DNA from: Phycisphaerae bacterium
GTDB lineage: Bacteria; Planctomycetota; Phycisphaerae; UBA1845
Direction of reading: 5' to 3'
Length of the DNA stretch: 64,000 nt
Assembly: GCA_963666835.2 (NCBI GenBank)
Contig: CAXXGO010000001.1
Location: 512,001 to 576,000 of the forward strand
Position 1 is the stretch's first letter, and each line of letters begins with the position of its first letter. Below the pieces are notes generated by a model. That model had not been told where the DNA came from, ran no database searches, and saw only the letters and a list, made by a program, of their open reading frames with translations. Both the position numbers and the translations under genes were made by a program. This document shows, one piece after another, positions 9,884 through 58,701 of the stretch.

Positions 9884-9989
9884 TCGGATGACTTGATAAA
9901 GGGCAACCCGGCCGCGCCGGGTGGCTCGTTGCAGAGTAAGCCGACGTGGTTGAGCACCTTCGGGTGTTTGACCACGTCGGCTTTTTTTT
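9884..9989 (+). ncRNA. Repeated cis-regulatory leader, copy 1 (61-nt hairpin overlapping intrinsic terminator 9940-9989)
   Basis: TCGGATGACTT..GGGCAACCCGG..CCGGGTGGCTCGTTG.AGAGTAAGCCGA followed by long stem-loop and T8; -10-like TATACT at 9825-9830. Confidence 0.85.
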
Positions 9990-10110
9990 GGGCTTGCAGT
10001 GACTTGAGGAGGTTGCAACCACCGAGAACCGTGAGGAGCGAAGTGAGTGCTGGTCCGTGCAGCTGGGGACGGGGCTGGGCAGGCACGAAGCGAGGTGCAC
10101 CGATACGAGA

Positions 10111-10980
10111 ATGACCATGGTACAGTTGATTCCCAAGTCTACGACGACACAACACAGGCGGAAGGACACTTCAGTGTCACGCGATGCCGCCGTATCACGC
10201 GTTGCAGACAGCTACGAGCTTTATGTCACCCAACACGTGCAATCGGTGTTTCGCCCAGGTGCAAAGTGGAGGTGCCCCGGGGTACAGATTGACGCGGCCG
10301 GGTTCATTAGCGGCCGACCCGGTGGAGATTTCTATATAGCTGCGCTCGGTCCGCACAACGAGGTGTCACTCGCAGTCGGAACCGTCAAGGGCAGTGGGTT
10401 GTTGCCGACGCTGTGCAAAGCGTTGATTGCTGCTCTCATCCATATGCAAGCGCGTCGAGCGTCTCCACCAAGCGTCCTCGTTCAGAAGGTCAGTTCTCTT
10501 TTGTGCGAGTTCAACAAAAATGCGCCGCGCCTCCCGGTCGTCTGCTCCATGTTCACCGTATTGATCGACAGGAGGCGGGAAACGTTTGAGTACTGCAGAG
10601 CTGGCGACTGCCGGCCGTTTCTGCAGACAGAGGACAGTCAGTGGTTCGAGCTTCCTCCCACCTGCCGAGGCCTAGGATGCGCGGCAGAGACAGACACCGA
10701 TGCCCATGCCTTGGTTATGGAGGCAAGCCAGATCGAGCGGCTCGCTGTCATTACTGCCGGTTGCTCAGGTAACGGGAAAGGAACGACTAATAATGTGGGT
10801 GCTGCTCTCCTATCGTCGATCCCTTGTGGATCGGCGAGCCGACAAGTACGCGCCATGTTAGCGAAGATCTGTCCGGAACGGTATCACGGCGCGTGTCCGG
10901 AGCGTGAAGTCTCGGTGGTCGTCGCAGATCTGCGCTACAGTGAAGACTCTGATGCGCCTGCGACAACCAGCCCGTGTTGA
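10111..10980 (+). CDS. SpoIIE/PP2C-family phosphatase-like protein, catalytically degenerate
   Basis: GGDFY and 'Y.RAG..P' motifs retained; other metal-binding Asp positions substituted. Confidence 0.65.
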   Translation: MTMVQLIPKSTTTQHRRKDTSVSRDAAVSRVADSYELYVTQHVQSVFRPGAKWRCPGVQIDAAGFISGRPGGDFYIAALGPHNEVSLAVGTVKGSGLLPTLCKALIAALIHMQARRASPPSVLVQKVSSLLCEFNKNAPRLPVVCSMFTVLIDRRRETFEYCRAGDCRPFLQTEDSQWFELPPTCRGLGCAAETDTDAHALVMEASQIERLAVITAGCSGNGKGTTNNVGAALLSSIPCGSASRQVRAMLAKICPERYHGACPEREVSVVVADLRYSEDSDAPATTSPC

Positions 10981-11072
10981 GGCGAGCGAACGCGTCAAGA
11001 CATCATGGAAGTCTGAACCAGTTTGGCGGACAGGTGGTGTCAGCCTGTCCCCGCATGGTGAGGTATAATGCG

Positions 11073-12545
11073 ATGAGAGTGTTGATGGTCTCAACGGCTA
11101 CGCCGAACACCTTCTGGAGCTACAAGCACGTCCTGTCGTTCATCTCAAAGAAGTCGTGTTTTCCGCCGCTGGGTTTGTTGACCGTCGCGGCGATGCTCCC
11201 AAAGCGCTGGGACCTCAAGCTCGTCGATCTCAACGTTACATCGCTCACCGACGCACAACTCGCGTGGGCGGATTACGTGTTTGTCTCGGCCATGCTCGTG
11301 CAGGCCGATTCCGCGCGGGAAGTCATCGCCCGGTGCAGCGAGCTGGGCAAGACCGTCGTTGCCGGCGGCCCCCTGTTCACCACCGGCCACGCGGGATTCC
11401 CCGAGGTGAAGCACTTCGTCCTCGGCGAGGCAGAAGACATTATGCCCGAACTCGTGGCTGACATGGTCTCCGGAAAGCTCAGGAAGTACTACCGTTGTGA
11501 AGAACGGCCCGATATTTGGAAGACGCCGGTACCCCGGTGGGACTTGATCAACCTCAAGCACTACGTCCTGATGCCGCTTCAGTTTTCGCGCGGCTGCCCG
11601 TTTGATTGCGAGTTCTGCGACATCATCGTGATGAACGGCCGAGTACCGCGCCTGAAAAGCAACGAGCAGATGATCCGCGAACTGGAGAGCCTTGTGGACG
11701 CAGGCTGGACCGACCCGATATTCATTGTGGACGACAACTTCATTGGAAATAGGACAAAGGTAAAGGCGTTCCTTCGTGAACTCATCGTGTGGCAGCAGCA
11801 ACGCAGCATCCGGCTGCAGTTCACGACTGAGGCCTCGTTGAACCTAGCGGACGATCCGGAACTGCTAGACCTGATGGTTCGTGCGGGCTTCAAGAAGGTC
11901 TTCGTCGGGATCGAAACGCCGCAGGAGGACAGCCTGCTCGAATGTGGAAAAGTCCAGAACGCCAAGCGCGACATGCTCAGCGCCGTCAAGGCGATCCAGA
12001 AGTCCGGTCTCGAGGTGATGGGTGGCTTCATCGTCGGATTCGACAGCGACAAGCCCAACATCTTCGAGCGACAGATCAGGTTTATCCAGGAGGCCGGCGT
12101 CGTGACGGCCATGGTCGGTCTGCTCCAGGCGCTGCCGGGGACGCGGCTCTTTTCGCGGCTCAGCCAGGAAGGTCGCATCCTTCACGACGCGAGCGGAAAC
12201 AACGTCGACGCAAGCCTGAATTTCGTCCCCAAGCTCGATCGCGAAGTGTTGATCGAAGGCTACCGCGCGCTCGTGAAACGCCTATACACGCCGAAGATGT
12301 ACTATCGGCGCATCCTGACGTTCCTGCGCGAGTATCGTCCGCAGGGGCGACGCTTCCACCTATCCTGGTGCGACGCGAAGGCGTTCTTCAAGTCGCTCTT
12401 GGTCATGGGTGTCCTGAGCCGCGGGCGACGGGAGTACTGGAAGTTCTTCACGCAGGCGTTGCTCTTCCACCGCCGCGCTTTCCCGGAGGCTATGACGCTC
12501 GCGATCATCGGATATCACTTTCGGCGCGTCGCGTCGGCGTTGTAG
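11073..12545 (+). CDS. B12-binding radical SAM protein (DUF4070 C-terminus)
   Basis: PPLGLLTVAAML, SRGCPFDCEFC, DDNFIG, GGFIVGFD. Confidence 0.92.
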   Translation: MRVLMVSTATPNTFWSYKHVLSFISKKSCFPPLGLLTVAAMLPKRWDLKLVDLNVTSLTDAQLAWADYVFVSAMLVQADSAREVIARCSELGKTVVAGGPLFTTGHAGFPEVKHFVLGEAEDIMPELVADMVSGKLRKYYRCEERPDIWKTPVPRWDLINLKHYVLMPLQFSRGCPFDCEFCDIIVMNGRVPRLKSNEQMIRELESLVDAGWTDPIFIVDDNFIGNRTKVKAFLRELIVWQQQRSIRLQFTTEASLNLADDPELLDLMVRAGFKKVFVGIETPQEDSLLECGKVQNAKRDMLSAVKAIQKSGLEVMGGFIVGFDSDKPNIFERQIRFIQEAGVVTAMVGLLQALPGTRLFSRLSQEGRILHDASGNNVDASLNFVPKLDREVLIEGYRALVKRLYTPKMYYRRILTFLREYRPQGRRFHLSWCDAKAFFKSLLVMGVLSRGRREYWKFFTQALLFHRRAFPEAMTLAIIGYHFRRVASAL

Positions 12546-12589: not shown

Positions 12590-12970
12590 CTACGGCTTCT
12601 TCTTCTCGCGCACGAGGGGCGACTCGGCCAGGGTGAAGACCACGATCTCTTCTCCGGTGGTGGTGCTGATGTCGTGGTGGAGGCTCACTACGTTGACGCC
12701 CGTGACCTCCAAGACCATCGATTCCAAGACCGCCCGGGCTGCCTCGATCAGCTGGATCCGCACTTCTTTGAGCAGGGCCCTACCTCTTTCGCTCGAGAGA
12801 GACTGGACGAGGTGCTGCTCGGCCGCGGTCAGAACGCCCACGAGACGGATCACGACGAGATCGCCAATCAGGTGGGACTGGATATTCTTCGGCCCGCGGC
12901 CCATGAACTCCTGTTCAAAACGCCTGATGCCCTCGCCAATGGCAGCCTCGATCTCTCCCTGTGTTTTCAT
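12590..12970 (-). CDS. DUF2294 / MpsC-family protein (subtype A, 'MKTQGEIEAA')
   Basis: 'FEQEFMGRGP...GVLTAAEQHL...LLKEVR...VVSLHHDISTTTGEEIVVFTL'. Confidence 0.88.
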   Translation of the reverse strand: MKTQGEIEAAIGEGIRRFEQEFMGRGPKNIQSHLIGDLVVIRLVGVLTAAEQHLVQSLSSERGRALLKEVRIQLIEAARAVLESMVLEVTGVNVVSLHHDISTTTGEEIVVFTLAESPLVREKKKP

Positions 12971-13199
12971 CGTGACCTCCAGCCTGCCCCGCGTAGCGGT
13001 CGGTTCTGGCACAGCTGAGATGTTCACTCGGCCACTAGCGCGACCCTCTGATCCCGTAACCTGCAGAACACGATATCGACCACCGGGCAATAAACCTACT
13101 CATTCTTGAGGAATCCGGCAACCATCGGCGCGCCGATGTAGTATACTATAGTAGTGAGCGAGGTCGCTGTGCGCTCTACGGCGGCTCCGGTCGAGGTTT

Positions 13200-13304
13200 T
13201 CGGATGACTTAATGAAGGGCAACCCGGCGCTGCCGGGGCGTCCGTTGAAGAGTAAGCCGACGTGGTTGAGCACCTTTGGGTGCTTGGCCGCGTCGGCTTT
13301 TTTT
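13200..13304 (+). ncRNA. Repeated cis-regulatory leader, copy 2 (terminator 13256-13304)
   Basis: Same motif as copy 1; TATACT at 13142-13147; upstream of hsp20 pair, divergent from DUF2294. Confidence 0.85.
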
Positions 13305-13362
13305 GTTCTTGGCGGCCGCGGTGGTGCGGACGAACGATCCTTTCGCAGAAAGGTGCAGAGAC

Positions 13363-13812
13363 ATGTTAAGAACCCGATGGCATCCTTTGGGCGTGGTGTG
13401 GCCGGAGATGAACCGTCTGCCGGCGGAAATGGAGCATAGGTTAGGCCGTTTTGTGATGAACGACCCGAGGCGGCTTGCCCACAGCGCCTATCCGCCGCTC
13501 AACCTCTGGGAGGACGACAACAACCTGTACGTCGAAGCGGAACTTCCCGAGCTTGAGGTGACCGACCTGGAGATCTTTGTCAAAGGCGACAACGAGCTGT
13601 CGATCAAAGGCGAGCGCAAGCAACCCGAACTGGGAGAGGGCAAGTGGCATCGTCGGGAGCGAGGCCATGGTGAGTTCTCGCGGGTGGGCGTGTTGCCTCA
13701 CTACGTGGACAGCGACAAGGTCACGGCCAAATTCAGGCACGGTGTGTTGACCATCACGTTGCCGAAGCGAAAGGAGGCCCAGGCGCGGCGAATCGAGGCC
13801 AAAGCCACCTAA
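13363..13812 (+). CDS. Hsp20/alpha-crystallin small heat-shock protein
   Basis: YPPLNLWED, AELP, LSIKGERK, GVLTITLPK, C-terminal I-x-A. Confidence 0.93.
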   Translation: MLRTRWHPLGVVWPEMNRLPAEMEHRLGRFVMNDPRRLAHSAYPPLNLWEDDNNLYVEAELPELEVTDLEIFVKGDNELSIKGERKQPELGEGKWHRRERGHGEFSRVGVLPHYVDSDKVTAKFRHGVLTITLPKRKEAQARRIEAKAT

Positions 13813-13971
13813 TTCCGACACCGGCCGCGTCTCGCCCGCCTTCCACGTCGGCAGGTTGGGTCGAAAGTGGCCATGTCACGGGAGGTGGGCCTCGACACGA
13901 AATCGGCGGTCAATGCGAGCGCGAAACAACGTTTTGGAACGTATTTTCTTGACAAAGTGGAGGTGCAAACC

Positions 13972-14367
13972 ATGACACCAACCTTAACGACGGAAGAAAC
14001 CCACAGCGACGTTGCCCCCGTGGAACGTACACTCGGTGGGATTACTTTCAGTCCCCGGTTCGACATCTGGGAGAACGACGACGAGACGATTCTGTACGGC
14101 GATCTACCCGGTGTCATGCCGAGGGATTTGGATGTTAGCTTCGAAAAGCCCGTGCTGACGATTCACGGCAAAGTCAGTCCGCGCCACGATGACATCAAGT
14201 TCCTGCACGGCGAATACGGAATCGGCGATTTTCACCGTACGTTCACCATCGGCGAAGCGATCGACACGGAGAGGATCTCCGCCGAATTCAAGAACGGTGT
14301 CCTGACCGTGCATTTGCCGAAGGACGAGAAGGTGAAACCGCGTGAGATCGAGGTCAAATGCCGCTGA
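13972..14367 (+). CDS. Hsp20/alpha-crystallin small heat-shock protein
   Basis: P.FDIWE, DLPGV, NGVLTVHLPK, IEV; RBS GGAGG. Confidence 0.93.
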   Translation: MTPTLTTEETHSDVAPVERTLGGITFSPRFDIWENDDETILYGDLPGVMPRDLDVSFEKPVLTIHGKVSPRHDDIKFLHGEYGIGDFHRTFTIGEAIDTERISAEFKNGVLTVHLPKDEKVKPREIEVKCR

Positions 14368-14616
14368 TGCAAAGACCTCTGAGGAATCGTATCTGGTTCG
14401 AAATCGGAGCCGCTGGCGCCGAAGGCAAAGGACGCTGCGCTGAGCCCTCCTCGTGTCACCACAATGAAAGGTCTTCCAGTTGCTCCATTCTGATCATCCT
14501 GCTGCCTACGGGACGCACGTGATCACCAGCGCAGCGAGATCGTCTGCGCTCAAGAAGGAGGTCTGGTTATGACTCGATTCGCTTGGATGACTGATTGATC
14601 TAAAAGGAGAATCTTC

Positions 14617-15603
14617 ATGGATCCTATCGTGTATGCAGTGATCTTCGCCGTTGTCGTTCCTTTAGTGGTCTTTTTCTCGGGCATCAGGCTTGTTCGTCCA
14701 ACACACAAGGGACTCGTCGAGAGGCTCGGCAGGTACCGGCGCTTCGCGAATCCGGGTTTCAACTGGATCATCCCTGTCATTGACAGAATGATCAAGGTCA
14801 ACACGACGGAGCAGATGGTTGATGCCCAGCCGCAAGAGATCATCACCAACGACAATCTCAACGCCAGGGTGGATGCCCAAGTCTACTTCAAAGTGAAGGA
14901 CGACGAGGAAAGCGTCAAGAGTTCCCAGTACCACGTCAACAACTACCAGAGTCAGATTGTCAGCCTGGCTCGGACGACACTCCGCAATATCATCGGCACG
15001 TTAACCCTGAAATCCGCCAACAGCGAACGAGACAACATCAACGGTGCGCTTCTGACTACGTTGAGCAAGGAAACCATGAGCTGGGGAATGGCGATTGTCA
15101 GGACCGAACTGAAGGAAATCGACCCTCCCAAGGATGTCCAGGAGACGATGAACAAGGTTGTCAAAGCGGAGAACGAGAAGGTAGCCGCCTTGGATTTCGC
15201 CAACGCGGTCGAGAGACAGGCGGATGGGGAAAAGAGGGCGGAGATCAAGAAGGCCGAAGGCATCAGGCAGGCCAAGATTCTTGCGGCGGAGGGCGAGGCC
15301 CAGGCAATAAAGCTCGTGAATGAGGCGGCGAACACATACTTCATTGGAAACGCACAGCTTCTGAGGAAGCTGGAGGCCCTCGAGAGCTCATTGAGCCACA
15401 ATGCCAAGATCGTCATTCCGTCAGGCTGTGAACTGGTCAATGTCATCGGAGAGATGGCCGGCGTTTTGCCGCTGGCGGGCGGAAACGGACGACGCCGAAG
15501 CGAAGACGGAAAACACGGGTCCGCGGAGTTGGCGCGGGCGGCCCAGCGGGTGGTCAAGCCTTCTGTTATGAGGGAGGAGGTCCGCTCGCAGCCTGCGCTG
15601 TAG
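14617..15603 (+). CDS. SPFH (band 7/stomatin-like) membrane protein
   Basis: N-terminal TM segment, LVERLG, IIPVID, ARTTLRNIIG, IDPP. Confidence 0.92.
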   Translation: MDPIVYAVIFAVVVPLVVFFSGIRLVRPTHKGLVERLGRYRRFANPGFNWIIPVIDRMIKVNTTEQMVDAQPQEIITNDNLNARVDAQVYFKVKDDEESVKSSQYHVNNYQSQIVSLARTTLRNIIGTLTLKSANSERDNINGALLTTLSKETMSWGMAIVRTELKEIDPPKDVQETMNKVVKAENEKVAALDFANAVERQADGEKRAEIKKAEGIRQAKILAAEGEAQAIKLVNEAANTYFIGNAQLLRKLEALESSLSHNAKIVIPSGCELVNVIGEMAGVLPLAGGNGRRRSEDGKHGSAELARAAQRVVKPSVMREEVRSQPAL

Positions 15604-15685
15604 ATGCTGGTCGGCATTCATGCGGTCAGTAGAGGATGTACGGAGCCACCGGTGACGTTTGATTCGGCTCCGATCACAGTCTGAG

Positions 15686-15788
15686 TCGGATGACTTAATG
15701 AAGGGCAACCTGGCCGTGCCGGGGGGCTCGTTGAAGAGTAAGCCGGCGTGGTCAGACACCTTATGGTGTCCCACCGCGCCGGCTTTTT
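15686..15788 (+). ncRNA. Repeated cis-regulatory leader, copy 3 (terminator 15742-15788), intra-operonic
   Basis: Same motif with compensatory changes in the terminator stem; directly upstream of DUF2294. Confidence 0.85.
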
Positions 15789-15836
15789 CTCGCTTGCAGT
15801 GGTAGTGGACGGCCGTAGCGGCCAGGGAGGAACGCC

Positions 15837-16256
15837 ATGGACAAACCCAATTCAACAATGGCGCGCCAGATTGCCCAGGCGGCCAGTGTTTTCGAGCAGC
15901 AGAGGACGGGCAACACACCCAAGTCCGTGACCGTGGTGCTGAGCGACACCACGCTGGTGATCACGCTGCACGGGGCCTTGTCGGAGGCCGAGAAGGCCCT
16001 GGCGAGAAGTCCCGAGGGTGCCGCTCAGATACAAGACTTTCACCGACAGCTGTTCGCCAACGCCTCCGAGTCGTTGCGACAGGAGATCAAGAGGATTACT
16101 GGCGTGGAGGTGCGTGAGGCTACCGCGGAAGTCGAGCCGGCTACCGGCACCGTGGTAGGCGTGTTCACAAGCGGCACGACGGTACAGGTATACCAGCTCG
16201 CGCATGGCGTACCCACGGACACCTGGAACGGGAGTGAACGAGGCGACCAATCATGA
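15837..16256 (+). CDS. DUF2294 / MpsC-family protein (subtype B, 'MARQIAQAA')
   Basis: 'FEQQRTGNTPKSVTVVLSDTTLVITLHGALSEAEKALA...EIKRITGVEV'. Confidence 0.85.
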   Translation: MDKPNSTMARQIAQAASVFEQQRTGNTPKSVTVVLSDTTLVITLHGALSEAEKALARSPEGAAQIQDFHRQLFANASESLRQEIKRITGVEVREATAEVEPATGTVVGVFTSGTTVQVYQLAHGVPTDTWNGSERGDQS

Positions 16257-16491
16257 GATCGGGGGTTCTACCACGTTCCTTTTGTCGAGGAAGAACCGTA
16301 AATCCGTGGTTGCCGGATGTTCCAACTGCGTCGGGCGCCTTCTGCGGATCATGGTGCTCGTGTTTTATGACGGGACCGCAAGTCCGGGCTTTGAAGCCGG
16401 TGACGGTTTCCCTGTCCATCGTTGGGAGGTGTGCGAACGGATTCGCGCCGGTGTCGGGCTGGAAGCAGGTTGACTGACAAGGAGAACACCG

Positions 16492-16935
16492 ATGGGTAAG
16501 ACGAACGTCGAACGACGAAACCACGCGTGGTTTGCCCTGGCAGACGCAGAGCATTGTCGGCTCTTGTGCTGCCGCTTGACTGAACAAGGCACGCCACACG
16601 TTGACGAGTATGAAGCGATCGAGAACAAGTTTCCAGAACGTGAACACCTGCGGCCGCAGACCGGGGACGGCATGACCCATGATGTCGAGGAGAAGGAGCG
16701 ACGTTTCACGGGGAAGATCGTGGAAAGGTTGCAGGAGAACGCCAAGAAGCACGAGATCGATTGCCTGGTCATCTTCGCGCCCGCTCGCATGCTCGGCGAA
16801 CTCCGGAAGGCTTCCTCCCGACTGCTACCGGGACACCTTAAGGAACTCGAAGGCAATCTGATGCGCCTCGATGCCGGCCAGTTGGCAGAACATCCGATGG
16901 TCCGCGACCTGGTGCGGACCACGCAAGAGCCATGA
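16492..16935 (+). CDS. Host-attachment/baeRF12-like protein
   Basis: N-terminal 'W..LADA..CRL', 'ERRF...I.E.L', 'LVIFAPARMLGELRK'. Confidence 0.7.
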   Translation: MGKTNVERRNHAWFALADAEHCRLLCCRLTEQGTPHVDEYEAIENKFPEREHLRPQTGDGMTHDVEEKERRFTGKIVERLQENAKKHEIDCLVIFAPARMLGELRKASSRLLPGHLKELEGNLMRLDAGQLAEHPMVRDLVRTTQEP

Positions 16936-17100
16936 TGTTCGGAGCCGTAATCATGAGCACGCTCTGCGGGGCGAACCGGTGGCCGTATGCAATCCGCATT
17001 GTGAGGACGTTGAGGGCTTGAACAGACACGGAGACCAGCTCATGCAACAACGAAAATCTGGAATTGGAGCGGAGCTGCGACATCACATGGAGTGCCTTTG

Positions 17101-19680
17101 ATGAACGAGTTGACCACGGGTCCGGAACCGGCCGGCGTTGCACGTTCTGCCGGAAACAACGGCAAAGGTGACCGCAACCGCATCGCTTTCGTCGGCAACT
17201 ACGTGCCGCGGTGCTGCGGTATCGCCACCTTCACAACTGATCTATGTGCCGCGTTGAGCGGCAATGGGACCGAGTGTCTGGCGGTCGCGATGAATGATCG
17301 CCTGGAGCGCTACGACTATCCATCCCCGGTGCGCTTCACCATCGAACAGAATGACTTGGCATGCTATCGCCGTGCCGCCCAGTTTCTCAACAATCGCGCC
17401 GATGCCATCAGCCTTCAACATGAGTACGGCATCTATGGAGGTCCGGCCGGCAGTCACATCCTGACGGTCCTGGCCGAGCTGCGCGCCCGCGTCGTGACCA
17501 CGCTGCACACGGTGCTGCGCGAGCCGACGACCGAACAGCGAGAGGTGCTCGAACGAGTGGGTGGCCTCTCCGACCGCGTGGTTGTGATGAGTCGCCGAGG
17601 CGCGGAGTTCCTCCACGAAATCTACCGTATCCCCACAGAGAAGATCGACTTCATCCCCCACGGTGTGCCCGACTTCGCCTTCGTCGATCCAAGCTTCCAT
17701 AAGGAGCAATTCGGGGTGCCGGGCAAATCGGTGCTGATGACCTTCGGCCTGCTCGGCCCAGGCAAAGGCCTGGAGAGCGTCATTCGCGCGTTGCCGGCGA
17801 TCATCGCTCGCTTTCCGAACGTGGTGTACCTCGTCGTAGGTGCTACGCACCCCCACGTGTTGAGTCAGCAGGGTGATATCTACCGTATGAGCCTGCATCG
17901 GCTGGCCCGGGAACTCGGCGTCGAGCAGCACGTAGTCTTCCACAATCGTTTCGTCGATCACCAGGAACTGACGGAATTTATGGGTGCCGCCGACATCTAC
18001 ATCTCGCCCTACGAGCACGAAGCCCAGATTACGTCGGGGACCCTCGCGTGGGCGGTCGGTGCTGGCAAGGCCGTAGTCTCTACCCCTTACTGGTATGCCC
18101 AGGAACTGCTGTCGGACAAGCGTGGCGTGCTCGTGCCGTTCAAAGACCCGGCAGCAACCGCCGAGGCAGTGAATCGTCTATTGGAAGACGACGAGGAACG
18201 AAACGCGATGCGAAAACGGGCGTACCTGTTCGGGCGCGAGATGACTTGGCCCAATGTCGCCCGTGCGTACTTGGACTCCTTTGCGCGTGCCCGTGAGCAG
18301 AGTGCGCACCACCTCCACGTACTCCGCGCCTTTGCCCCGCAGCCGCTCATGGGGGACGTGCTGCCCGAAATACGGTTGCAGCACCTAAAACGCCTCACGG
18401 ATGGCACTGGGGTACTCCAGCATGCGCGTTTCTCGGTCCCCAGTTATCGAGAGGGGCATACCACCGACGACAATGCCCGGGCGCTGCTCCTGATGGCCCT
18501 CCTGGAGCAACTGGGCGAGCTGCCGTCCGACGAGATCGAAGATCTGACCACGCGCTATCTGGCCTTCCTCGACTATGCTTTTGCCGCTGACACCGGACGC
18601 TTTCGGAACTTTCTGGCATACGGGCCACGGCGCTCGCCCGAAGGAGTCGGCTCGGAAGACTGTCACGGGCGCGCCCTGCGGGGACTGGGGGCGTTGGTGC
18701 GGCGTACCAACCGACCTGGGTTGCGAGGCGCAGCCGTCAACCTGTTTAGCGCGGCGCTGCCCGCCGCGCTAGAGCTAGAGTCGCCGCGTGCCTTGGCTTT
18801 CACTCTGCTCGGGATACACGATTACCTGCGTTGGCTCTCGGGCGACCGCGCCGCGGAGGAAGCTGGCCAACGGCTCACCAGCCGACTCGTAACCCTTTAC
18901 CACGAAACAAGTCAGAAGGGTTGGACCTGGTTTGAAGACTCTCTGACCTATGCCAACGCGTGTCTGCCCGAGGCGCTGCTAGTCGCAGGCGAATCCCTGG
19001 GCGAGAGCCAAAGCACAGAAATCGGCTTGGCAACGCTCGACTGGCTGATGAGCGTGCAGCGTGCAGTGGGAGGACACTTCGTGCCCGTTGGCTCAAATGG
19101 ATTCTACAAGCGCGGAGGCACACGCGCCTGCTTCGATCAGCAGCCCATCGAGGCCTGCGTCTCGGTTTCTGCCTGTCTGACAGCCCAGCGAATCACCGGC
19201 GACTTGCATTGGCGGCGGGAGGCGGAGCGAGCTTTCGAATGGTTCCTGGGCCGAAACGATCTGGGGTTGCCGCTATGCGACCTCCGAACAGGCGCGTGCT
19301 ATGACGGCCTGTGTCCAGATCAGGTAAACGCCAATCAGGGTTCCGAGTCGACACTGGCGTATCTCGTGGCCTTGGCGGAAATGCGGCTCGCCGACCAAGC
19401 GAGCGTTCTGCCCTGCGATGCAGAGTCGGCTGCCAGTGCGTCACCCTCAGACCTGGAAGCACATCGTGTCAGACAATCGTTACGAAATACTGTTTCATCG
19501 CCAGTCGTAGAACCCGACCGTGACGCCGATGCTGGTGTCATATGTGATCAGCTCGCCGTTCAATCCCGGCGTGACGCGTCTGACGATTCTAGAGAAGAGA
19601 ACAGAGTCATATGTCAAAGCCAAGAAGTCCCAGCACCCAGCGCGATTGCGCGTTCAGGAAGAACGAGCGTGAGCAAGTGA
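17101..19680 (+). CDS. GT4 glycosyltransferase fused to a glycoside-hydrolase-like C-terminal domain
   Basis: PRCCGIATFT, QHEYGIYGG, TFGLL..GKG, SGTLA; C-terminal TDDNARA, DQQPIEA, NANQGSES. Confidence 0.88.
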   Translation: MNELTTGPEPAGVARSAGNNGKGDRNRIAFVGNYVPRCCGIATFTTDLCAALSGNGTECLAVAMNDRLERYDYPSPVRFTIEQNDLACYRRAAQFLNNRADAISLQHEYGIYGGPAGSHILTVLAELRARVVTTLHTVLREPTTEQREVLERVGGLSDRVVVMSRRGAEFLHEIYRIPTEKIDFIPHGVPDFAFVDPSFHKEQFGVPGKSVLMTFGLLGPGKGLESVIRALPAIIARFPNVVYLVVGATHPHVLSQQGDIYRMSLHRLARELGVEQHVVFHNRFVDHQELTEFMGAADIYISPYEHEAQITSGTLAWAVGAGKAVVSTPYWYAQELLSDKRGVLVPFKDPAATAEAVNRLLEDDEERNAMRKRAYLFGREMTWPNVARAYLDSFARAREQSAHHLHVLRAFAPQPLMGDVLPEIRLQHLKRLTDGTGVLQHARFSVPSYREGHTTDDNARALLLMALLEQLGELPSDEIEDLTTRYLAFLDYAFAADTGRFRNFLAYGPRRSPEGVGSEDCHGRALRGLGALVRRTNRPGLRGAAVNLFSAALPAALELESPRALAFTLLGIHDYLRWLSGDRAAEEAGQRLTSRLVTLYHETSQKGWTWFEDSLTYANACLPEALLVAGESLGESQSTEIGLATLDWLMSVQRAVGGHFVPVGSNGFYKRGGTRACFDQQPIEACVSVSACLTAQRITGDLHWRREAERAFEWFLGRNDLGLPLCDLRTGACYDGLCPDQVNANQGSESTLAYLVALAEMRLADQASVLPCDAESAASASPSDLEAHRVRQSLRNTVSSPVVEPDRDADAGVICDQLAVQSRRDASDDSREENRVICQSQEVPAPSAIARSGRTSVSK

Positions 19681-25246: not shown

Positions 25247-26050
25247 ATGGTCACAACGGATAGCTCTCGGCAACCACAGCCACCCGACCCCGGGCGCAGT
25301 TTGCAGCCTCGCCGCCTATGGCCGGCGATGCGCGCTCTAATGCGTACTCGTGTTTTTGCGGGCTTGGCCACCGTTATACCACTGTGGGTAACGTGGGTTG
25401 TGGTGAAGTTCGTATTCAATACGATGCGGTCGGCCACACAGCCGATCATCGAGTACAGCATCCAATGGGTTGCCCGGTCGACGGGGAGTCAGCCGGAAGA
25501 CATACCCGCCTATCTGGATTGGGCCGTGCCGGTAGTCGCAGTTCTGCTGACGCTGTTTTCGTTGTACCTGCTGGGTCTGGTGACCGCCAACGTGCTGGGG
25601 CGGCGCGTTGTTCTGCTTCTCGAACGTCTGTTTGAAGGTCTGCCCCTGGTGAAGACGATCTATGGATCAACGAAACGTATCATTGTTGCGTTGGCTGGGG
25701 GAAGTGGCTCGATGCAGTTCCAGAAGGTCGTGCTCGTTGAGTTCCCTCGGCCGGGAATGAAATGCATCGGGTTTCTCACGTCGGTGGCCGAGGACACGGA
25801 CACGGGAAGAAAGATGGCCACCGTGTTTATCTCCACCACACCCAATCCCACGACTGGGTACATGCAGATCCTTCCACTTCAGGAAGTATCGGAGACCGGC
25901 TGGACGGTGGAAGACGCGGTCAAGGTGTTAATGTCGGGCGGCATTCTCTGCCCACCAAAGATACCGTTCGACCGTGTCCACCCGGTCAGTTGGAGCCAGA
26001 CTATGGCCCTGGACGCTGGCGCTCCTGGACCTGCGTCGCAGTACGGCTGA
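25247..26050 (+). CDS. DUF502 membrane protein
   Basis: 'LPLVKTIY', 'VVLVEFPR.G', 'TTPNPTTGY', 'SGG'. Confidence 0.88.
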   Translation: MVTTDSSRQPQPPDPGRSLQPRRLWPAMRALMRTRVFAGLATVIPLWVTWVVVKFVFNTMRSATQPIIEYSIQWVARSTGSQPEDIPAYLDWAVPVVAVLLTLFSLYLLGLVTANVLGRRVVLLLERLFEGLPLVKTIYGSTKRIIVALAGGSGSMQFQKVVLVEFPRPGMKCIGFLTSVAEDTDTGRKMATVFISTTPNPTTGYMQILPLQEVSETGWTVEDAVKVLMSGGILCPPKIPFDRVHPVSWSQTMALDAGAPGPASQYG

Positions 26051-26181
26051 GCAATACGCGGGTGAACATGGACGGAACGCGATACGTGAACGGTCATCCA
26101 CTCCAATTCCTCATCGGTGCAAAATGGCTGGGGTCTCTCGTCGACGCCGGTCACAGAATGTCGCTTTGCAGTTCTTCCAGA

Positions 26182-31900: not shown

Positions 31901-32818
31901 ATGGCTCAGAGGCGCGCGATTCTCAACAAGAAGAAAGCCACGCAGAAGATCCGGAAGATCACCAACGCGATGGCCATAATCGCAAGTGGAAGACTGCAGA
32001 GGCTGCGCAAGCGTTTGCTAGCGGCCGAGCCTTACGTAAATAAGCTGCACGAGATGGTCGAGGCACTTGCCGAAAATGTACGTGACCTCGACCACCCCCT
32101 CCTTCGACAGGCCTCGGTTGAGGATTCCGCCGGTTGCGCCGCCTTTTTTGTGATTACCAGTACACGCGGACTGGCTGGAGCGTACAACAGCAACGTGCTT
32201 CGGATGGCATCGGATTCTATCCGCGAGTGGGAATCCGGCGGCCACTCCGTCGAATTGTACGTCAAAGGCAAGAAAGGCGCTTCGTACTTCGCCTTCCGCA
32301 AACGCCCGATGGCCCGACGATTTGACTCGCTCGGCGAAATGCCGACAAACGCGGACGTGGCTGAGGCCGCGACGTGGTTCATAGATCGCTTCAGCTCCGG
32401 CAAAACCGACATGCTCAAGGTGGCCTACACGAAGTTTATGAGTACCGGCGACTGTCGGCCAGCATTGATTACTTTGTTGCCCACGAGAGCCAAGCGCGAA
32501 ACAGCAGCTAACGCTAGCCAAGCGTCGACGTTGACTGGGCAGTTCAAAAGCGCCGTCGGGTATGAATTCTCACCTGATCCAAGCGATCTGCTGGGCGAGT
32601 TGCTGCCACTCGCTGTACAAAGCGACCTGCGTCAGTGTCTTCTCAACGCAGCGACGAGCGAGAGCGCTGCACGGAGGGTCGCCATGACGCGTGCCACCGC
32701 CAGCGCTGACAGATTGAGCAGATCGTTATCGCTGCGGTACAACCGCGCACGCCAAGACCACATTACAACCGAGTTGATGGACATCATTGGTGCAACCGAG
32801 GCTTTCAGAAACCGCTGA
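31901..32818 (+). CDS. atpG: Stand-alone F1 ATP synthase gamma subunit
   Basis: KITNAM, RGLAGAYNSN, SE.AAR..AM..AT, YNRARQ.ITTEL..I..A. Confidence 0.9.
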   Translation: MAQRRAILNKKKATQKIRKITNAMAIIASGRLQRLRKRLLAAEPYVNKLHEMVEALAENVRDLDHPLLRQASVEDSAGCAAFFVITSTRGLAGAYNSNVLRMASDSIREWESGGHSVELYVKGKKGASYFAFRKRPMARRFDSLGEMPTNADVAEAATWFIDRFSSGKTDMLKVAYTKFMSTGDCRPALITLLPTRAKRETAANASQASTLTGQFKSAVGYEFSPDPSDLLGELLPLAVQSDLRQCLLNAATSESAARRVAMTRATASADRLSRSLSLRYNRARQDHITTELMDIIGATEAFRNR

Positions 32819-33005: not shown

Positions 33006-33109
33006 TCGGATGACTTGATGAAGGGCAACCCGGCGGCGCCGGGTGGCTCGTTGAAGAGTAAGCCGACGTGGTTGCGCACCTTCGGGTGCTTGGCCGCGTC
33101 GGCTTTTTT
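33006..33109 (+). ncRNA. Repeated cis-regulatory leader, copy 4 (terminator 33062-33109)
   Basis: Same motif; TG-G-TATAAT at 32944-32952. Confidence 0.85.
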
Positions 33110-33158: not shown

Positions 33159-33245
33159 ATGCATGAAATCGATTCGGCCATGGCAAAGCAGATCGGTCGG
33201 GTGGCTGCGACTTTTGAGCGGCAGACGACCGGCCGGGTCCCGGAC
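33159..33245 (+). pseudogene. N-terminal fragment of DUF2294 subtype B
   Basis: 'MHEIDSAMAKQIGRVAATFERQTTGRVP' aligns by eye with 'MDKPNSTMARQIAQAASVFEQQRTGNTP' at 15837. Confidence 0.7.
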
Positions 33246-33365
33246 CTGCAACGCAGAAAAGCTGAACGGTACGCCGGTGTACAGGCCCAGAGCGCGACAC
33301 TTGAACGATCATCCGCTCCAGTTCTTCATCGGCGCAAAATGGCTGGGGTTTCTCGTCGACACCGG

Positions 33366-41015: not shown

Positions 41016-42326
41016 CTAAACCAGGAAGCTCTGGAACAAGACGGCAAAGCCGAGGAACGCCACAAACCCCACGACGTCCGTGACAGTCGTGAGAATAATG
41101 CTCGAACACTGGGCTGGGTCCCATCCAAGAGACTTCATGATGACCGGGATCGCGGCGCCGGAAAGCCCGGCGAAGAACAGATTGACCACCATTCCCAGGC
41201 CGATGACGAGCCCGAGTATCGCGTTGCCTTGCCAGAACCATGCGACCAATCCTGTCACAATCCCGGTGACCGTCCCGGTCGTAATTCCCAACAACCCTTC
41301 CTTCATCACGAGAGCCAGCACACGGTTGCGAGGTATCTCGCGCATCACGAGTCCGCGCATCACGATTGCCAGAGATTGTGCTCCGGCGTTGCCGCCTTGG
41401 CCGGCGACGACCGGCAAGAAGACTGCCAGAACCGTAATTCTGGCAATCGTGTCCTCGAACAGCGAGACTACGAAAGCGGCCAAGAACGCGGTCGCCAGAT
41501 TAACGTGAAGCCATGGCAGGCGCTTGCGCAGCGAGAAACGAATCGGTGAAAACGCTCGTTCGTCCGGGCTTCCACCGAACATGCGCTGAATGCTCTCGAC
41601 GACGTTCGCCTGAGCGCCCTGAATAAGCTGCTCCGCCTTCACGATACCGAGCATTCGTTTCTCGGCATCCACCACCGGCGCGGCGAAATATCGTCGCTTC
41701 GCAAGCTCTTGCGCGGCCTCAGCACTGTCGAGGAAGCAGTCCAGCGTGAAAACGTCGCGTTTGACCACCGATCCAAGCGGCGCGTCCTCCGCGGCCAGCA
41801 GGAGATCGCGCATGTTGATCACCCCGGTTAGACGCTCCTCGAGGTCGACCACGTAGGCGTACGATGCGGGGTATCGCTGCGATGCGAGCTTGCGTATTTT
41901 CTTCACGGCATCCCGTACCAGCTCACCCTCGTGGAGCGACAGATAGTCGGTGTGCATGATGCGGCCCACGCTTCCCTCGGGGTACACCAGCAAATCCCGG
42001 GCTTCATCCTTCAGCCTCTTGGGGGCGTGCGGCAGAAGCCGTTCAAGAGCATCCCGGGGGAGTCTCATTAGAAGGAATGCACCCCGCTTCGGCTCCATGG
42101 CGCGCACGACGGCCTTGAAACCCGCGGGATCCATGTCTTTGATGAGGGCGGCCGCGAAACTCAGCTGGAGGTGCGGCAGAATCAGGGCATTCATAGTATG
42201 CGGCAGCGCCTTGAATACCTCCACGGCTTCCTCCTCCGGCAAAGCCTCCAGCGTGCGAGCAGCGGTGGCTGCATCTGCGGTAACGTACTTCTCAACGAGC
42301 GGCGTCAGTGGGTTGACTGAGGCCAT
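41016..42326 (-). CDS. mgtE: Magnesium transporter MgtE
   Basis: CBS pair, 'RLPWL', 'PVVAGQGGNAGAQS', 'DPAQ.S.IILTTVTD'. Confidence 0.92.
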   Translation of the reverse strand: MASVNPLTPLVEKYVTADAATAARTLEALPEEEAVEVFKALPHTMNALILPHLQLSFAAALIKDMDPAGFKAVVRAMEPKRGAFLLMRLPRDALERLLPHAPKRLKDEARDLLVYPEGSVGRIMHTDYLSLHEGELVRDAVKKIRKLASQRYPASYAYVVDLEERLTGVINMRDLLLAAEDAPLGSVVKRDVFTLDCFLDSAEAAQELAKRRYFAAPVVDAEKRMLGIVKAEQLIQGAQANVVESIQRMFGGSPDERAFSPIRFSLRKRLPWLHVNLATAFLAAFVVSLFEDTIARITVLAVFLPVVAGQGGNAGAQSLAIVMRGLVMREIPRNRVLALVMKEGLLGITTGTVTGIVTGLVAWFWQGNAILGLVIGLGMVVNLFFAGLSGAAIPVIMKSLGWDPAQCSSIILTTVTDVVGFVAFLGFAVLFQSFLV

Positions 42327-42423
42327 TGGAACAACGCTCCGTAATCCTACTGTGCTCAAGATCGCGAGTGACTTGTCCCAGACGCGAACCAACCATCAGC
42401 TCTTGCCATATACGCTGAACTCA

Positions 42424-43461
42424 TCACCTGATCTCCTTGCGTCCCACAAGCCGTTGTCCCCGGCGTACTTTGCTGCCGCAGGCATCAAGCCATCTCGTGC
42501 GGACTTCCTGCTCGAGCTCGTCCGAATCCATCTCGGACATCGGTACCGATATCTTCCCGCCGGCGCGATGTAGATGCCCGCCAAAGTGCCCTAATCCACG
42601 CAGGACAGGATTCAGTAGGGTTAGCGAGGTGTGCTTATCGCCTTTTGATCTTGCCGAGAAGAGGAAGTCATCGCCAATCCTGGCCCCACAAAGGACGTAC
42701 TGGAGGCCATCGCACCGGATGAGAAGGTCAGCCATTTCTCCAACAATCTCCGGGGCTGTAATTCGAGGCAGGAAACACACCGCCGAGTCCGCGTAGACCA
42801 GAACGCTGTCCAGGCCGAGCAGCAATTCCTCGTAGTAATACCTAGGAAGCGGCGGATTTTCGATCTCGGAGAGGACGCCATACTCCACGAATCCGGAAAG
42901 CCACCGCAAGGCGGTATGATCCACTCGGGACAGTGCTTTACGGGCGCCGATCATCTCCGTACGAATGGCATACAGAAGGGCAGTAGCGACAGCAGGAGGA
43001 GGCTCGATCCGTTGTTCGCGCATGTATTCCGTCGCGATACTCGCCGAAGCCGTGACCTTGGGGCGCATGTCGCGGAACGGAAGTCGAAAGCCGTCGCTCT
43101 TTGATTCATGATGATCAATGACGGCAACGGGCGCTTTATCCCCGCCAAGCAAATGATTGACAGATGCGGGTGAACAGTCAACCAACACGGTTGCCGTGCG
43201 CACGCCCGGGTCAATCTCCTCGACAAGCTCGATGGGCGGCTGAAGTAACTTGAGGAGCTGGACGTTCTCGGCTCGGAGGACAGGTCCGCGCCCGAGCAGG
43301 CGTACAGGTTTATGCAGCCGGCTGCCCACGAGCAGAAGAAGGGCCCAGCCCGTGGCGATGGCATCCGGATCCGGGTTGTTGTGCATAATCACCATCGTGT
43401 CGTCGTATTCATCGAGGACGCTCAGCAGACGATCGGAACGTTTCCGTTTCTGGCTTGCCAT
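42424..43461 (-). CDS. DHH-family phosphoesterase
   Basis: HNNPDPDA, LVD, IDHH, GGH..RAGG. Confidence 0.88.
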   Translation of the reverse strand: MASQKRKRSDRLLSVLDEYDDTMVIMHNNPDPDAIATGWALLLLVGSRLHKPVRLLGRGPVLRAENVQLLKLLQPPIELVEEIDPGVRTATVLVDCSPASVNHLLGGDKAPVAVIDHHESKSDGFRLPFRDMRPKVTASASIATEYMREQRIEPPPAVATALLYAIRTEMIGARKALSRVDHTALRWLSGFVEYGVLSEIENPPLPRYYYEELLLGLDSVLVYADSAVCFLPRITAPEIVGEMADLLIRCDGLQYVLCGARIGDDFLFSARSKGDKHTSLTLLNPVLRGLGHFGGHLHRAGGKISVPMSEMDSDELEQEVRTRWLDACGSKVRRGQRLVGRKEIR

Positions 43462-43544
43462 CACAATCACCTTGGTTCCCAAAGACCGATGCTATCCGCA
43501 CGTCGGCTACGCAAAACTAACCTGGACGAGCGCCCGAAGCATCG

Positions 43545-45020
43545 CTATTGCCCGTCCGGCGGTAAAACGCCTCCCTCGGCGCTTTCACTTATGATGTCCA
43601 ATTTCACATTTACCTCCGTAGGCTGATCGCCCTCTAGCCGCATGTGCTGCGGCACGACCAGCTTGGCTTTGAGCTCCGAGGCAGCAGTGAGTCGGCTGAG
43701 ATCGATCGTCTCCGTGTAGATCTTTGTTGTCGACGACTTGTACGAACGCCAGATGAGCACCTGCACCGTATCGGGTATCACCTTGATTTCCCGTTGCCTC
43801 AGCTCCTTTGGGAGGCGCCCCTCGGTTCGTAGTTCGACAACCACACGTGCTCGCACCCAGGTGTGGACCCCGAATTGGACGATCCGAGGTGCAGACCGAA
43901 ACAGCGCCAGATTCGAGGGGAGCTTGACATGCGACTCGTCGATGACGATCTGCTGTGGCCCCTCCTGGACGTTATTTAGGTCAAGGGACACCTTGAGTGT
44001 GCTGGGCGCCAGCAAGTTGAAGGCACGCTCAAAGCCGGCTAGTGTAATCCGGGCCTCCGTTGGGGCGGAATCGTCGATGTCCATCGTGTCCGGCAGGTTG
44101 CGGTATTCAACGGGTACGACAAACGTCTTCTGAACGGTTTCGGCATCGAAGCTGATGAGACACCAGGCGACGCAAGCCACAAGAACAGCTGCTAGCTTCA
44201 GTCCGAGATTCTGGATAGGTAACCGCTGCCGACCATCGGTCGCTTCACGAGGCCGCACACGCTGCAAAAAACGATCCAGGCGCTGCTTGAGTTCTACGGG
44301 CGAGTCGACTTTCCTGAGTTTTCCGGCCTCTGCGATGCTAACTTCCCCACGTTCTTCCGACACCACGACAACCATCGCGTCACAAAGTTCGGACAGGCCC
44401 ACCGCCGCGCTGTGTCGCGTTCCTCGGACGTTAATCTCCCTTATGTTCTCGGATAGCGGCAAGTGTGCTGCGAACTGAGATATACGATCCTGGTCGATGA
44501 TCACCGCGCCATCATGGCCCATGGAGTGCGGGTCGAAGATGCTGTCGAGCAGCGCCTTACTGATTTGTGCATCGACGGCAACGCTGCCTCGCACGTGTCG
44601 ATCGAGGGCTTCCGTGCCTCGAACGACGAGAAGAGCTCCAGTCTTCTTCTTCGCCAAATCGAACGCGATCTCAACAAGAACGTCTAGATTTTCATCCACT
44701 GTTTGAGTGCGGAATCGGTGGAGATTTCCCAGCAATGCAAGGCGCGCAAAGGACCTGCGCAGATCTTGCTGGAACACCACAATTGCGGCGATCGCGGCGA
44801 AGGCCAGGCCCGCCTGGAATATGGCGGTAGTCATGTAGAGATCAAACGCCCGCGCCAAAAGGTACACGATGGTGAGCACGCCGATGCCGACCAAAATCTG
44901 TCGGGATGCGGTCGACTTGAACCACATGAAGAAGGCGTAGATTAACAACGAAACCAGCGCGATGTCCGCCGCATCGGCGAGCCGGAATGTTCGCTGCAAT
45001 TGCTCAAGGATCGACATCAT
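43545..45020 (-). CDS. Membrane diadenylate cyclase (DisA_N/CdaA-like) fused to YbbR-like domains
   Basis: 3 N-terminal TM segments, VFQQDLRR, HDGA, GTRHSAA, VSEERG, further TM segment then beta-rich repeats. Confidence 0.88.
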   Translation of the reverse strand: MMSILEQLQRTFRLADAADIALVSLLIYAFFMWFKSTASRQILVGIGVLTIVYLLARAFDLYMTTAIFQAGLAFAAIAAIVVFQQDLRRSFARLALLGNLHRFRTQTVDENLDVLVEIAFDLAKKKTGALLVVRGTEALDRHVRGSVAVDAQISKALLDSIFDPHSMGHDGAVIIDQDRISQFAAHLPLSENIREINVRGTRHSAAVGLSELCDAMVVVVSEERGEVSIAEAGKLRKVDSPVELKQRLDRFLQRVRPREATDGRQRLPIQNLGLKLAAVLVACVAWCLISFDAETVQKTFVVPVEYRNLPDTMDIDDSAPTEARITLAGFERAFNLLAPSTLKVSLDLNNVQEGPQQIVIDESHVKLPSNLALFRSAPRIVQFGVHTWVRARVVVELRTEGRLPKELRQREIKVIPDTVQVLIWRSYKSSTTKIYTETIDLSRLTAASELKAKLVVPQHMRLEGDQPTEVNVKLDIISESAEGGVLPPDGQ

Positions 45021-45114
45021 GTTCTGACCTCATCTGCAACCGAACCTGGAATGCCTGGTGTCGGCGGGCAGCCCATCGGCGTCAAGCAGACTGTCGATAC
45101 AGCTCCGAGGTTCG

Positions 45115-47719: not shown

Positions 47720-47958
47720 TTGAGCCTCGTCTCGACCAGCTGGGTCCTCGCTTGCTTGAGCAGGTCCCGGTCCCTTTTCGGTCGGCAGCGACAGGACCAG
47801 TTGCTGTTCAGCCGCGGTCAGAACGCCCAGGACGGAAACCATGACGAGGTGGGGAATCAAGTATACCTGGATATTCTCGTGCTCTGGCACATAAACTTGT
47901 GTTCAAAACGCCTGATGCCCTCGCATACGGCGGCCTCGATCTCTCCCTGTGTTTTCAT
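47720..47958 (-). pseudogene. Degenerate DUF2294 subtype A
   Basis: 'MKTQGEIEAAVCEGIRRFE' then 'GVLTAAEQQLV' in a shifted frame; paralogous to 12590-12970. Confidence 0.8.
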
Positions 47959-48190: not shown

Positions 48191-48296
48191 TCGGATGACT
48201 TAATGAAGGGCAACCCGGCGCTGCCGGGTGGCCCGTTGAAGAGTAAGCCGACGTGGTTGAGCACTTACGGGTGCTTGGCCGCGTCGGCTTTTTTTT
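48191..48296 (+). ncRNA. Repeated cis-regulatory leader, copy 5 (terminator 48247-48296)
   Basis: Same motif; TATAAT at 48133-48138; upstream of groEL. Confidence 0.85.
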
Positions 48297-54818: not shown

Positions 54819-56312
<1,494 letters not shown>

Positions 56313-56412
56313 TTTGTGGTGTGGGAGTGCGGTGGACACACCATAAAGTCCAGCGCCTTGTTGGGGCGCCGGATTGAAGAAACAACTGCCGCACAAGTAA
56401 AGGAGATTGAAG

Positions 56413-56601: not shown

Positions 56602-56651
56602 AACACAGCCCTCAACATGATCGCCATGGGCGGGGGATTCTTCCTCCGCCC

Positions 56652-58382: not shown

Positions 58383-58416
58383 AACAACAAAGCAAACAGC
58401 TAAAGGAGATAGTACT

Positions 58417-58698: not shown

Positions 58699-58701
58699 GC
58701 C

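Follow-up and report, generated by a model that had tools for sequence, protein, structure and literature searches.

Among described antitermination systems, those closest to the one treated here are the BglG/LicT/SacY/GlcT proteins with the ribonucleic antiterminator (RAT) and the ANTAR (AmiR/AmiC, EutV, NasR) and HutP regulators. In the first, an irregular looped hairpin overlaps the 5′ arm of a terminator, the regulator gene adjoins or lies inside the target operon, and the default state is OFF; in the second, one small RNA-binding protein serves several terminators, some of them operon-internal, and HutP is encoded upstream of the leader that it opens. Here we describe a 64,000-nucleotide stretch of a Phycisphaerae genome (hereafter the window; G000:C1:512001-576000, in which G000 is the source genome, 92% complete), where two types of DUF2294/MpsC protein (Pfam family PF10057), A and B, flank copies of a 105-nucleotide (nt) leader RNA. 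With a slight lean we favour the view that a protein-dependent attenuation system runs a general-stress-like regulon in Phycisphaerae-type planctomycetes, with A as antiterminator in trans and B as modulator; an A/B pair flanking an uncatalogued RNA switch before stress genes points to an undescribed gene-control circuit.

The likeness to RAT-type control lies in the looped hairpin overlapping the terminator, the position of the regulator gene and the OFF default. In contrast to BglG or SacY, the proposed regulator is a single domain of 120 amino acids (aa), the rod measures 50-65 nt against about 30, Rfam gives no RAT-type match, the targets are stress or CO2 genes, and the regulator is paired with a degenerate paralogue. 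HutP is placed as are the type C genes treated below, and an AmiC-like negative partner resembles the role proposed for B, whereas neither a family match to ANTAR or HutP nor dual hexaloop hairpins or NAG repeats were found, and the partner B is the regulator's own paralogue. The Pfam scan of A and B returned PF10057 alone, with no CAT, PRD, ANTAR or HutP domain. By analogy, the long-leader system would work like RAT, HutP or ANTAR antitermination, outside those families. By protein family the nearest described locus is that of MpsC/YbcI (mpsABC / ndhF-ybcC): the Pfam family is the same, A falls in the canonical group, a terminator precedes S. pettenkoferi dabB and ndhF leaders are on record, whereas the present arrangement has no DabA, a divergent A with a leader-controlled B, and a multi-copy, stress-type regulon. 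We take ybcI to be a member of the B. subtilis ndhF operon. No function is assigned to MpsC in the literature examined, and no report tying DUF2294/MpsC to an RNA was found in searches mostly outside subscription papers.

A competing rod and terminator in the leader RNA

The leader consists of an irregular rod overlapping an intrinsic terminator, and is present in five copies in the window (Table 1) and nine in the source genome, which also has intact A and B genes, three of each. The core is a 61-nt irregular rod with a GGAUGAC/GUAAGCC base and a 3x3 internal loop; the 3′ side of this base module is made of the same nucleotides as the terminator 5′ arm, so that rod and terminator are mutually exclusive. 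All nine genome copies have the layout of an intrinsic-terminator attenuator, with a terminator and U-tract between promoter and first gene and a competing helix upstream, and in each of them the terminator state beats the rod state by a computed 8.8-11.3 kcal/mol. Covariation was detected at 13 of 32 pairs in 27 MAFFT-aligned sequences and, when 113 sequences were aligned to the model, a procedure that leans to the structure, at 23 of 32; 0 of 500 shuffles matched either value. The internal-loop nucleotides are highly conserved. A TAnnnT −10 hexamer peaks 50-69 nt before the core (156 leaders) and a TTGACA-like −35 is present in 38 of 131 leader promoters. A simple promoter scan called no site for the leader.

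At the gathering threshold, Rfam covariance models gave no match in the window, with sub-threshold chance matches only at 12950-13400, and on 37 related loci they found tmRNA and tRNA only. Identity with a known riboswitch, T-box, RAT or PyrR leader was rejected for lack of an Rfam match, and a minimal open reading frame (ORF; AUG-ACU-stop) in the leader was rejected, its stop being absent in three of the nine genome copies.

Arrangement of types A and B around the leader

An earlier note on this stretch, made from the letters alone, had placed a divergent A gene about 230 bp upstream of the leader twice, and a B gene as first gene about 50 bp past the terminator twice. Both placings were borne out: one A start, at 12970, lies 231 nt from the leader core at 13201, and the other, at 47958, lies 234 nt from the core at 48192; the B starts at 15837 and 33159 follow the U-tract ends at 15788 and 33109 by 48 and 49 nt. 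One member of each pair is intact (A1 and B1, 31% identical and both above the Pfam curated cut-off of 23 bits for PF10057); A2 is frameshifted and truncated, and B2 is a stub of about 25 codons. Each of the genome's four A starts is preceded, at 117-127 nt, by a promoter-like site, and close relatives of the A1 and B1 proteins are in Planctomycetota/Phycisphaerae. A complete unit, with divergent A, promoter, leader and B, is found outside the window at C1:146164-147294, and also in relatives. Since window positions 13305-16930 are duplicated with 99.4% identity at G000:C1:588442-592072 (hsp20-hsp20-SPFH-leader-B-baeRF12), the duplicated B is not an independent case. This duplicate sits behind a different leader, after A - leader - Transgly_assoc - leader. 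At the junction truncating B2, positions 33238-33365 are 80% identical to 26023-26150.

The note had also recognised no mpsA/mpsB (DabB/DabA) in the window, and none is present among its ORFs; DabA (PF10070) has no match in the whole source genome. The arrangement that marks an mpsABC/DabAB locus, dabA/mpsB and dabB/mpsA adjoining mpsC, does not occur in the window.

Linkage of A, B and leader among genomes

Co-occurrence and distance were examined genome-wide, as the earlier note had proposed, with type A set in the order sample at 58% identity or more to A1, where the identity distribution has a gap. The samples overlap. Among 40 relatives the RNA was found in 13, PF10057 in 15 and both in 12; among 150 genomes of the phylum the counts were 5, 15 and 4. 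Among 150 genomes of the order, with no more than 25 candidates scored per genome in the RNA search, the leader was found in 64, full-length A in 52 and B in 52. The leader is present in all 52 genomes with full-length A and in 51 of the 52 with B; neither leader nor A/B is found in 83 genomes, and an A fragment or B without leader in three. B accompanies A in 47 of the 52 A genomes, and the A/B pair suggested in the note stands at the level of co-occurrence. Leaders in genomes lacking DUF2294, which if common would have spoken against its proposal of DUF2294 proteins as trans regulators of the leader, turned out to be uncommon (7 of the 64 leader-bearing genomes). The co-occurrence counts overstate the association, because related genomes are not independent samples and linked genes move together; the Fisher value was given no weight.

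A is never downstream of leader control, yet nearly always adjoins a leader. At least 56 of 66 full-length A genes outside the source genome stand divergent to a leader no more than 700 nt away (median 223 nt), a lower bound because the count took in 63 of the 150 listed RNA matches, those near an A gene, and 14 more matches were unlisted. Protein subtype and leader subtype also go together. All these points agree with the proposal of DUF2294 as a trans regulator. In an RNA-first scan of metagenomes, which gave at least 126 matches, we used 79 flanked loci with 80 distinct leaders. Among the matches listed, 47 leaders had enough flank on either side: 13 of them have both protein types nearby, 8 just A and 6 just B, and 20 stand alone. 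The median distance is 218 nt over the 32 cases measured for A and 47 nt over the 21 for B, and B is the first gene behind 27 of 64 sufficiently flanked leaders. Since the A and B spacings recur in other genomes they are, judging from sequence, not chance.

The number of leaders per genome reaches 10, against 1-3 A genes, and one genome (G038) has 10 leaders and a single full A that adjoins none of them. Because leaders outnumber A genes, A as regulator would have to act in trans. The note's portable cassette was therefore only partly upheld: the A-promoter-leader block does precede differing cargo, whereas the 20 leaders alone had no DUF2294 neighbour, the leaders exceed the A genes, and no mobility signal was seen for the unit. 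No inverted repeat bounding the unit was seen in the window repeat comparison, its boundaries not being mapped systematically. With so many leaders standing alone, the arrangement would be a regulon as much as a cassette, and mainly a regulon served in trans. The A-leader-B unit is lost often. A and/or B are decaying beside the leader, sometimes together with it, at G016:C18, G165:C58, G249:C165, G254:C76 and G301:C53.

Separation of the DUF2294 protein types

Besides A and B, two further types were distinguished, and 48 A, 97 C, 41 B and 8 D proteins were aligned. Type C, the canonical MpsC/YbcI, is a DUF2294 of about 50% identity without the long leader; behind it come a TTGACA promoter and then a shorter rod and terminator that share the base module of the long form. 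In 8 loci another degenerate DUF2294 paralogue, type D, lies downstream of type C. Ten positions (R25, R42, R64, K68, R71, R79, H98, D100, S102 and E107, in A1 numbering) are 93-100% conserved in the A and C proteins and replaced in B. Six of the ten are basic (R25, R42, R64, K68, R71 and R79); A and canonical MpsC keep them almost without exception, and B, which has its own invariant surface, has lost them. This A/B split predicts the RNA-binding residues. Autoregulation of B, suggested in the earlier note, thus survives in one half: its position places B under leader control, but with the conserved basic residues lost, regulation of B by A is more likely than self-regulation. In a quick tree A (support 99) is nested in the canonical group, and B and D form long branches, so placed that the tree cannot tell whether they share an origin. 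The D loci (L013, L089, L102, L132, L157, L170, L177 and L186) encode an acidic protein, often before a phosphoenolpyruvate carboxykinase (PEPCK) gene, and in L102 D is fused with the next gene in one long ORF.

Alternatively, A and B might jointly form the active antiterminator, with B as co-activator or signal-sensing subunit and a positive feedback giving a bistable switch. The presence of B in 47 of 52 A genomes, its own invariant surface, the recurrence of degenerate partners with type C and the frequency of positive feedback in stress regulons would all suit such a pair. Because B is made only after read-through, however, the first activation must be B-free; a second paralogue is absent from most examined type C loci (8 found), and five leader-bearing A genomes lack B. 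We regard joint action as quite unlikely.

The AlphaFold2 model of A (predicted local distance difference test score, pLDDT, 95) has the order alpha-beta-beta-alpha-alpha-alpha-beta-beta, and that of B (pLDDT 77) keeps the element order of A. No solved relative of A or B was found by sequence, nor by Foldseek at E<=0.001, and the ESM Atlas gave no match for A outside PF10057. Fold comparison with both models returned several type II KH proteins, of alpha-beta-beta-alpha-alpha-beta order (among RbfA, Era, uS3 and KhpB/Jag; Z 4.3-5.2), which is a lead and no more; a GXXG loop is absent. Against RbfA, A gives Z 5.2 with a root-mean-square deviation of 4.0 over 88 residues and B gives Z 4.8, both in the background range, and unrelated folds score no lower (best Z 6.2 and 6.9). 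The predicted A/B complex (score 0.01, mark 0.32) speaks neither for nor against binding.

Action of A at DNA or RNA polymerase, as a promoter activator or as a processive antiterminator loaded at the rod, was also considered. A divergent regulator-target layout is typical of transcription factors, the leaders combine a clear −10 with a −35 that is TTGACA-like in only 38 of 131 cases, and in some operons two leaders stand in series (13200 and 15686). We hold this to be very improbable, given that Pfam and fold searches found no helix-turn-helix or NusG-like match for A, that type C genes lie in tandem before a strong TTGACA promoter, and that one rod accompanies each terminator, as local action predicts.

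Genes behind the long leaders

The cargo was assessed on 84 first ORFs behind other long leaders, picked heuristically with clear B genes excluded and two degenerate B genes remaining. About 23 of the 84 are in families associated with general stress or dormancy, namely BON, Transgly_assoc, DUF3309, DUF2934, PRC, KaiC-like, HPF, DUF326, DUF883, YfdX, YflT, flavodoxin, DUF892 and baeRF12, and none of the 84 encodes a carbonic anhydrase, PEPCK or purine carboxylation enzyme. The long-leader cargo is general-stress-like and not CO2-related. The sigmaB, RpoS, PhyR-NepR-EcfG and DosR regulons share BON, YflT, DUF892/YciF, DUF883, Transgly_assoc, DUF3309, flavodoxin/WrbA-like, Usp, HSP20 and HPF members with it. 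In contrast to those regulons, control here apparently works by attenuation behind a housekeeping-type −10, with neither an alternative sigma factor nor a DNA-binding response regulator in that role, which suggests that planctomycetes run a general-stress-type regulon through antitermination. Collagen-repeat lipoprotein-like and ice-binding-like PEP-CTERM genes recur first behind long leaders (L020, L023, L193, L347, L350, L065 and L263).

Canonical DUF2294 loci and short leaders

The best 80 of 591 DUF2294 loci, from many phyla, were surveyed for type C. Genomes with type C only (G011, G026, G032, G210, G221 and G247) have no long leader. A terminator stands 40-520 nt downstream of type C in 60 of the 80 loci, and the base signature is found at 41 of 88 near against 26 of 970 far terminators, some being counted twice. 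The full module with terminator occurs at 21 of 93 type C loci; 30 shuffles gave 0-2 each, and the reverse strand gave 2. The base signature at near and far terminators is post hoc, since it was drawn up after viewing the sequences; two stricter earlier scanners marked 13 and 10 of the 80 loci. The pair beside A-U is U-A in 10 short leaders and C-G in 2, whereas long leaders have C-G there. Long and short leaders share the base module only and differ in length and upper loops.

Of 74 ORFs downstream of type C, 38 are CO2- or bicarbonate-linked (30 without purC): 15 of a PEPCK-like family, 3 PEPCK, 1 DUF4914, 8 purC, purE, purK, carB, 6 gamma-carbonic anhydrase-like, 1 beta-carbonic anhydrase-like and 1 POR. 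In Acetoanaerobium and Anoxybacillus the short-leader module precedes a monocarboxylate MFS and an SbtA-like permease, and in S. pettenkoferi the terminator stands directly before dabB. A CO2/bicarbonate signal fits this canonical branch, and nothing in the long-leader cargo points there. Short RNAs upstream of the staphylococcal and Bacillus ndhF/mpsA operons are given in earlier tables: a row in PMC2965217 gives B. subtilis ncr181 as a 158-nt RNA between adaB and ndhF, and a row in PMC2790875 annotates S. aureus RsaX05 as 'cis-acting leader of ndhF?'. The available part of a preprint (bioRxiv 10.64898/2026.09.08.750065) leaves the regulation of B. subtilis ndhF-mpsB unexplained and mentions neither ybcI nor a leader or terminator.

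A protein-free ON riboswitch, responding to an ion, metabolite, pH or temperature and linked to DUF2294 proteins as effectors or sensors of the same pathway, would account for the highly conserved internal-loop nucleotides, for the orphan leaders in 7 of 64 genomes and for the ion-transport cargo nearby in the window, and ON riboswitches share the layout in which a rod overlaps a terminator. It is unlikely in our judgement: A lies outside leader control and yet adjoins a leader in at least 56 of 66 cases, long and short leaders share the base module only, unlike a fixed aptamer, unrelated gene sets stand behind the two, and no Rfam riboswitch matched.

The commonest type C cargo is the PEPCK-like family of about 590 aa (15 loci within L112-L169, e.g. 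L116:7768-9534), which has PEPCK-like P-loop motifs, no Pfam or NCBIfam match in its N-terminal 330 aa and no match to a PDB sequence; the ESM Atlas names it PEP carboxykinase (0.99). Tandem, distinct rod-terminator leaders follow type C at +100 to +280 in L113, L121, L123, L172, L186 and L188, among others, the first (T1) with a GGNNGAY module and the second (T2) with an AAGGCCG base and a different 5′ side. In Desulfobacterota loci T2 is often the sole leader, and neither form has an Rfam match. A Cys-rich protein of about 160 aa without family match comes first behind tandem leaders in Phycisphaerae-type loci (L157:7668-8147, L188:2922-3410 and L190:1291-1797). In L011 (Rfam match) and L191 (by eye) the DUF2294 gene adjoins a tmRNA, with no leader nearby.

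Proposed control circuit and points against it

In the favoured reading, housekeeping-type promoters would fire into the leader, where the terminator, by computation only, wins by default, and the transcript would stop after about 150 nt. A, made from its own divergent promoter, would for that reason be present before induction. Once activated by a signal, A would bind the irregular rod and keep the GGAUGAC/GUAAGCC module closed, which would hide the terminator 5′ arm and let the polymerase read into the cargo, and A would serve every leader copy of the genome in trans. B would be made only after read-through, at 15837 possibly only past two leaders, and, keeping the fold without the presumed RNA-binding residues, would modulate A. 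As read from sequence, A probably opens the switch and B probably tunes it. The least certain step, offered tentatively, is that B is a delayed negative-feedback partner of A.

The long-leader system may derive from a canonical MpsC/YbcI with a neighbouring short leader, which has the same module and precedes CO2/bicarbonate genes. In its widest form, which we consider doubtful, the scheme would make DUF2294/MpsC proteins widespread RNA-binding antiterminators, ancestrally CO2/bicarbonate-sensing, which one planctomycete lineage would have rewired into a sigma-independent general-stress master switch with an RNA-blind B as post-induction antagonist. Such a system would add a new protein-RNA pair to the short list of protein-controlled attenuators and would offer for MpsC/YbcI, whose role in S. 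aureus and B. subtilis is unexplained, a function open to test; the canonical branch, if true, would explain the CO2 response of bicarbonate uptake and carboxylation genes, which the B. subtilis preprint of 2026 calls unexplored in its mechanism.

Several observations weigh against this reading. A is not net-basic (median charge −1). The basal P1 pairs that carry the switch are invariant in the long family, and P1 is for that reason without covariation support there. Five of the 52 A genomes lack B, 29 of the 84 first ORFs have no Pfam family, and the stress or dormancy label of the cargo families is a presumed regulon membership. Among the seven genomes with a leader and no A or B match, G254 retains an A remnant, and the other six (G029, G200, G223, G241, G251 and G267) gave no credible PF10057 match; G029 is 99% complete, and G241 and G267 (90-91% complete) have three leaders each, with terminators intact in five of the six, the five extracted. 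The phylum sample holds another such genome (G095). According to PMC6689103, deletion of mpsC in S. aureus caused no growth defect at ambient CO2, while mpsAB was needed. Growth being unaffected, the silent deletion weighs against an essential activator, unless basal read-through suffices. Orphan leaders and the silent mpsC deletion are the strongest counterpoints.

The same deletion, and the 1.7-2.5-fold decrease of S. aureus mpsA in 5% CO2 given in PMC6689103, would suit a DUF2294 protein that promotes termination as a PyrR/TRAP-like repressor of leaders read through by default, with orphan leaders as harmless constitutive remnants. The RNA itself argues otherwise: since the conserved rod competes directly with the terminator, a rod binder favours read-through, no conserved third, anti-antiterminator helix is present, and the computed default is OFF by about 9 kcal/mol. 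We consider a terminating role improbable.

Other features of the window

The features of the window are collected in Table 1.

Table 1. Positions of leader, DUF2294 and cargo features in the window
Feature	Position	Strand	Basis and remarks
Solo leader without DUF2294 neighbour	9884..9989	+	sequence
SpoIIE/PP2C-like protein and B12 radical SAM/DUF4070 protein, behind leader 9884	10057-12545	+	Pfam
A1, DUF2294/MpsC type A, intact, 126 aa, starts MKTQGEIEAA	12590..12970	-	PF10057 E 7.5e-34, 116.6 bits; putative RNA-binding antiterminator
Candidate sigma70-like promoter of A, TTGCCG-17-TAGGTT	13093..13121	-	weak, 7/12 consensus; back to back with leader promoter
-10 hexamer TATACT of leader promoter	13142..13147	+	sequence
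Small 5′ hairpin ahead of rod	13162..13186	+	folds, judged by eye; other genome copies have it with differing sequences
Leader rod, antiterminator state; base module GGAUGAC/GUAAGCC	13200..13260	+	folding, covariation
Intrinsic terminator, ~20 bp + U7	13254..13304	+	folding; 13/14 distal terminator pairs covary
Cargo hsp20, hsp20, SPFH/Band 7	13363..15603	+	Pfam
Second, operon-internal leader with terminator	15686..15788	+	no TAnnnT hexamer within 90 nt upstream
B1, DUF2294/MpsC type B, intact, 139 aa, first gene after leader	15837..16256	+	PF10057 E 5.2e-22, 78.5 bits
Further cargo, baeRF12/Host_attach protein and GT4 glycosyltransferase	16492..19680	+	Pfam; co-transcription inferred
Leader copy, TATAAT at 32947	33006..33109	+	sequence
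B2, type B stub, ~25 codons matching B1	33159..33233	+	3′ part replaced by unrelated DNA
A2, decayed type A	~47731..47958	-	aligns to A1; frameshift near codon 25, last third lost
Leader copy, TATAAT at 48133	48191..48296	+	sequence
groEL, GT4, corA, usp, further on N-ATPase operon, HPF, dnaJ	behind leader 48191	+	Pfam; transcript extent inferred

In the N-ATPase operon (54858-62692) an HPF gene is inserted before atpG, and a second, lone atpG (31901-32818) stands just upstream of leader 33006. Divergent from the groEL leader, a cluster on the minus strand (41016-46407) encodes a CNNM/CBS protein, a diadenylate cyclase (CdaA-like with YbbR), a DHH protein and MgtE.

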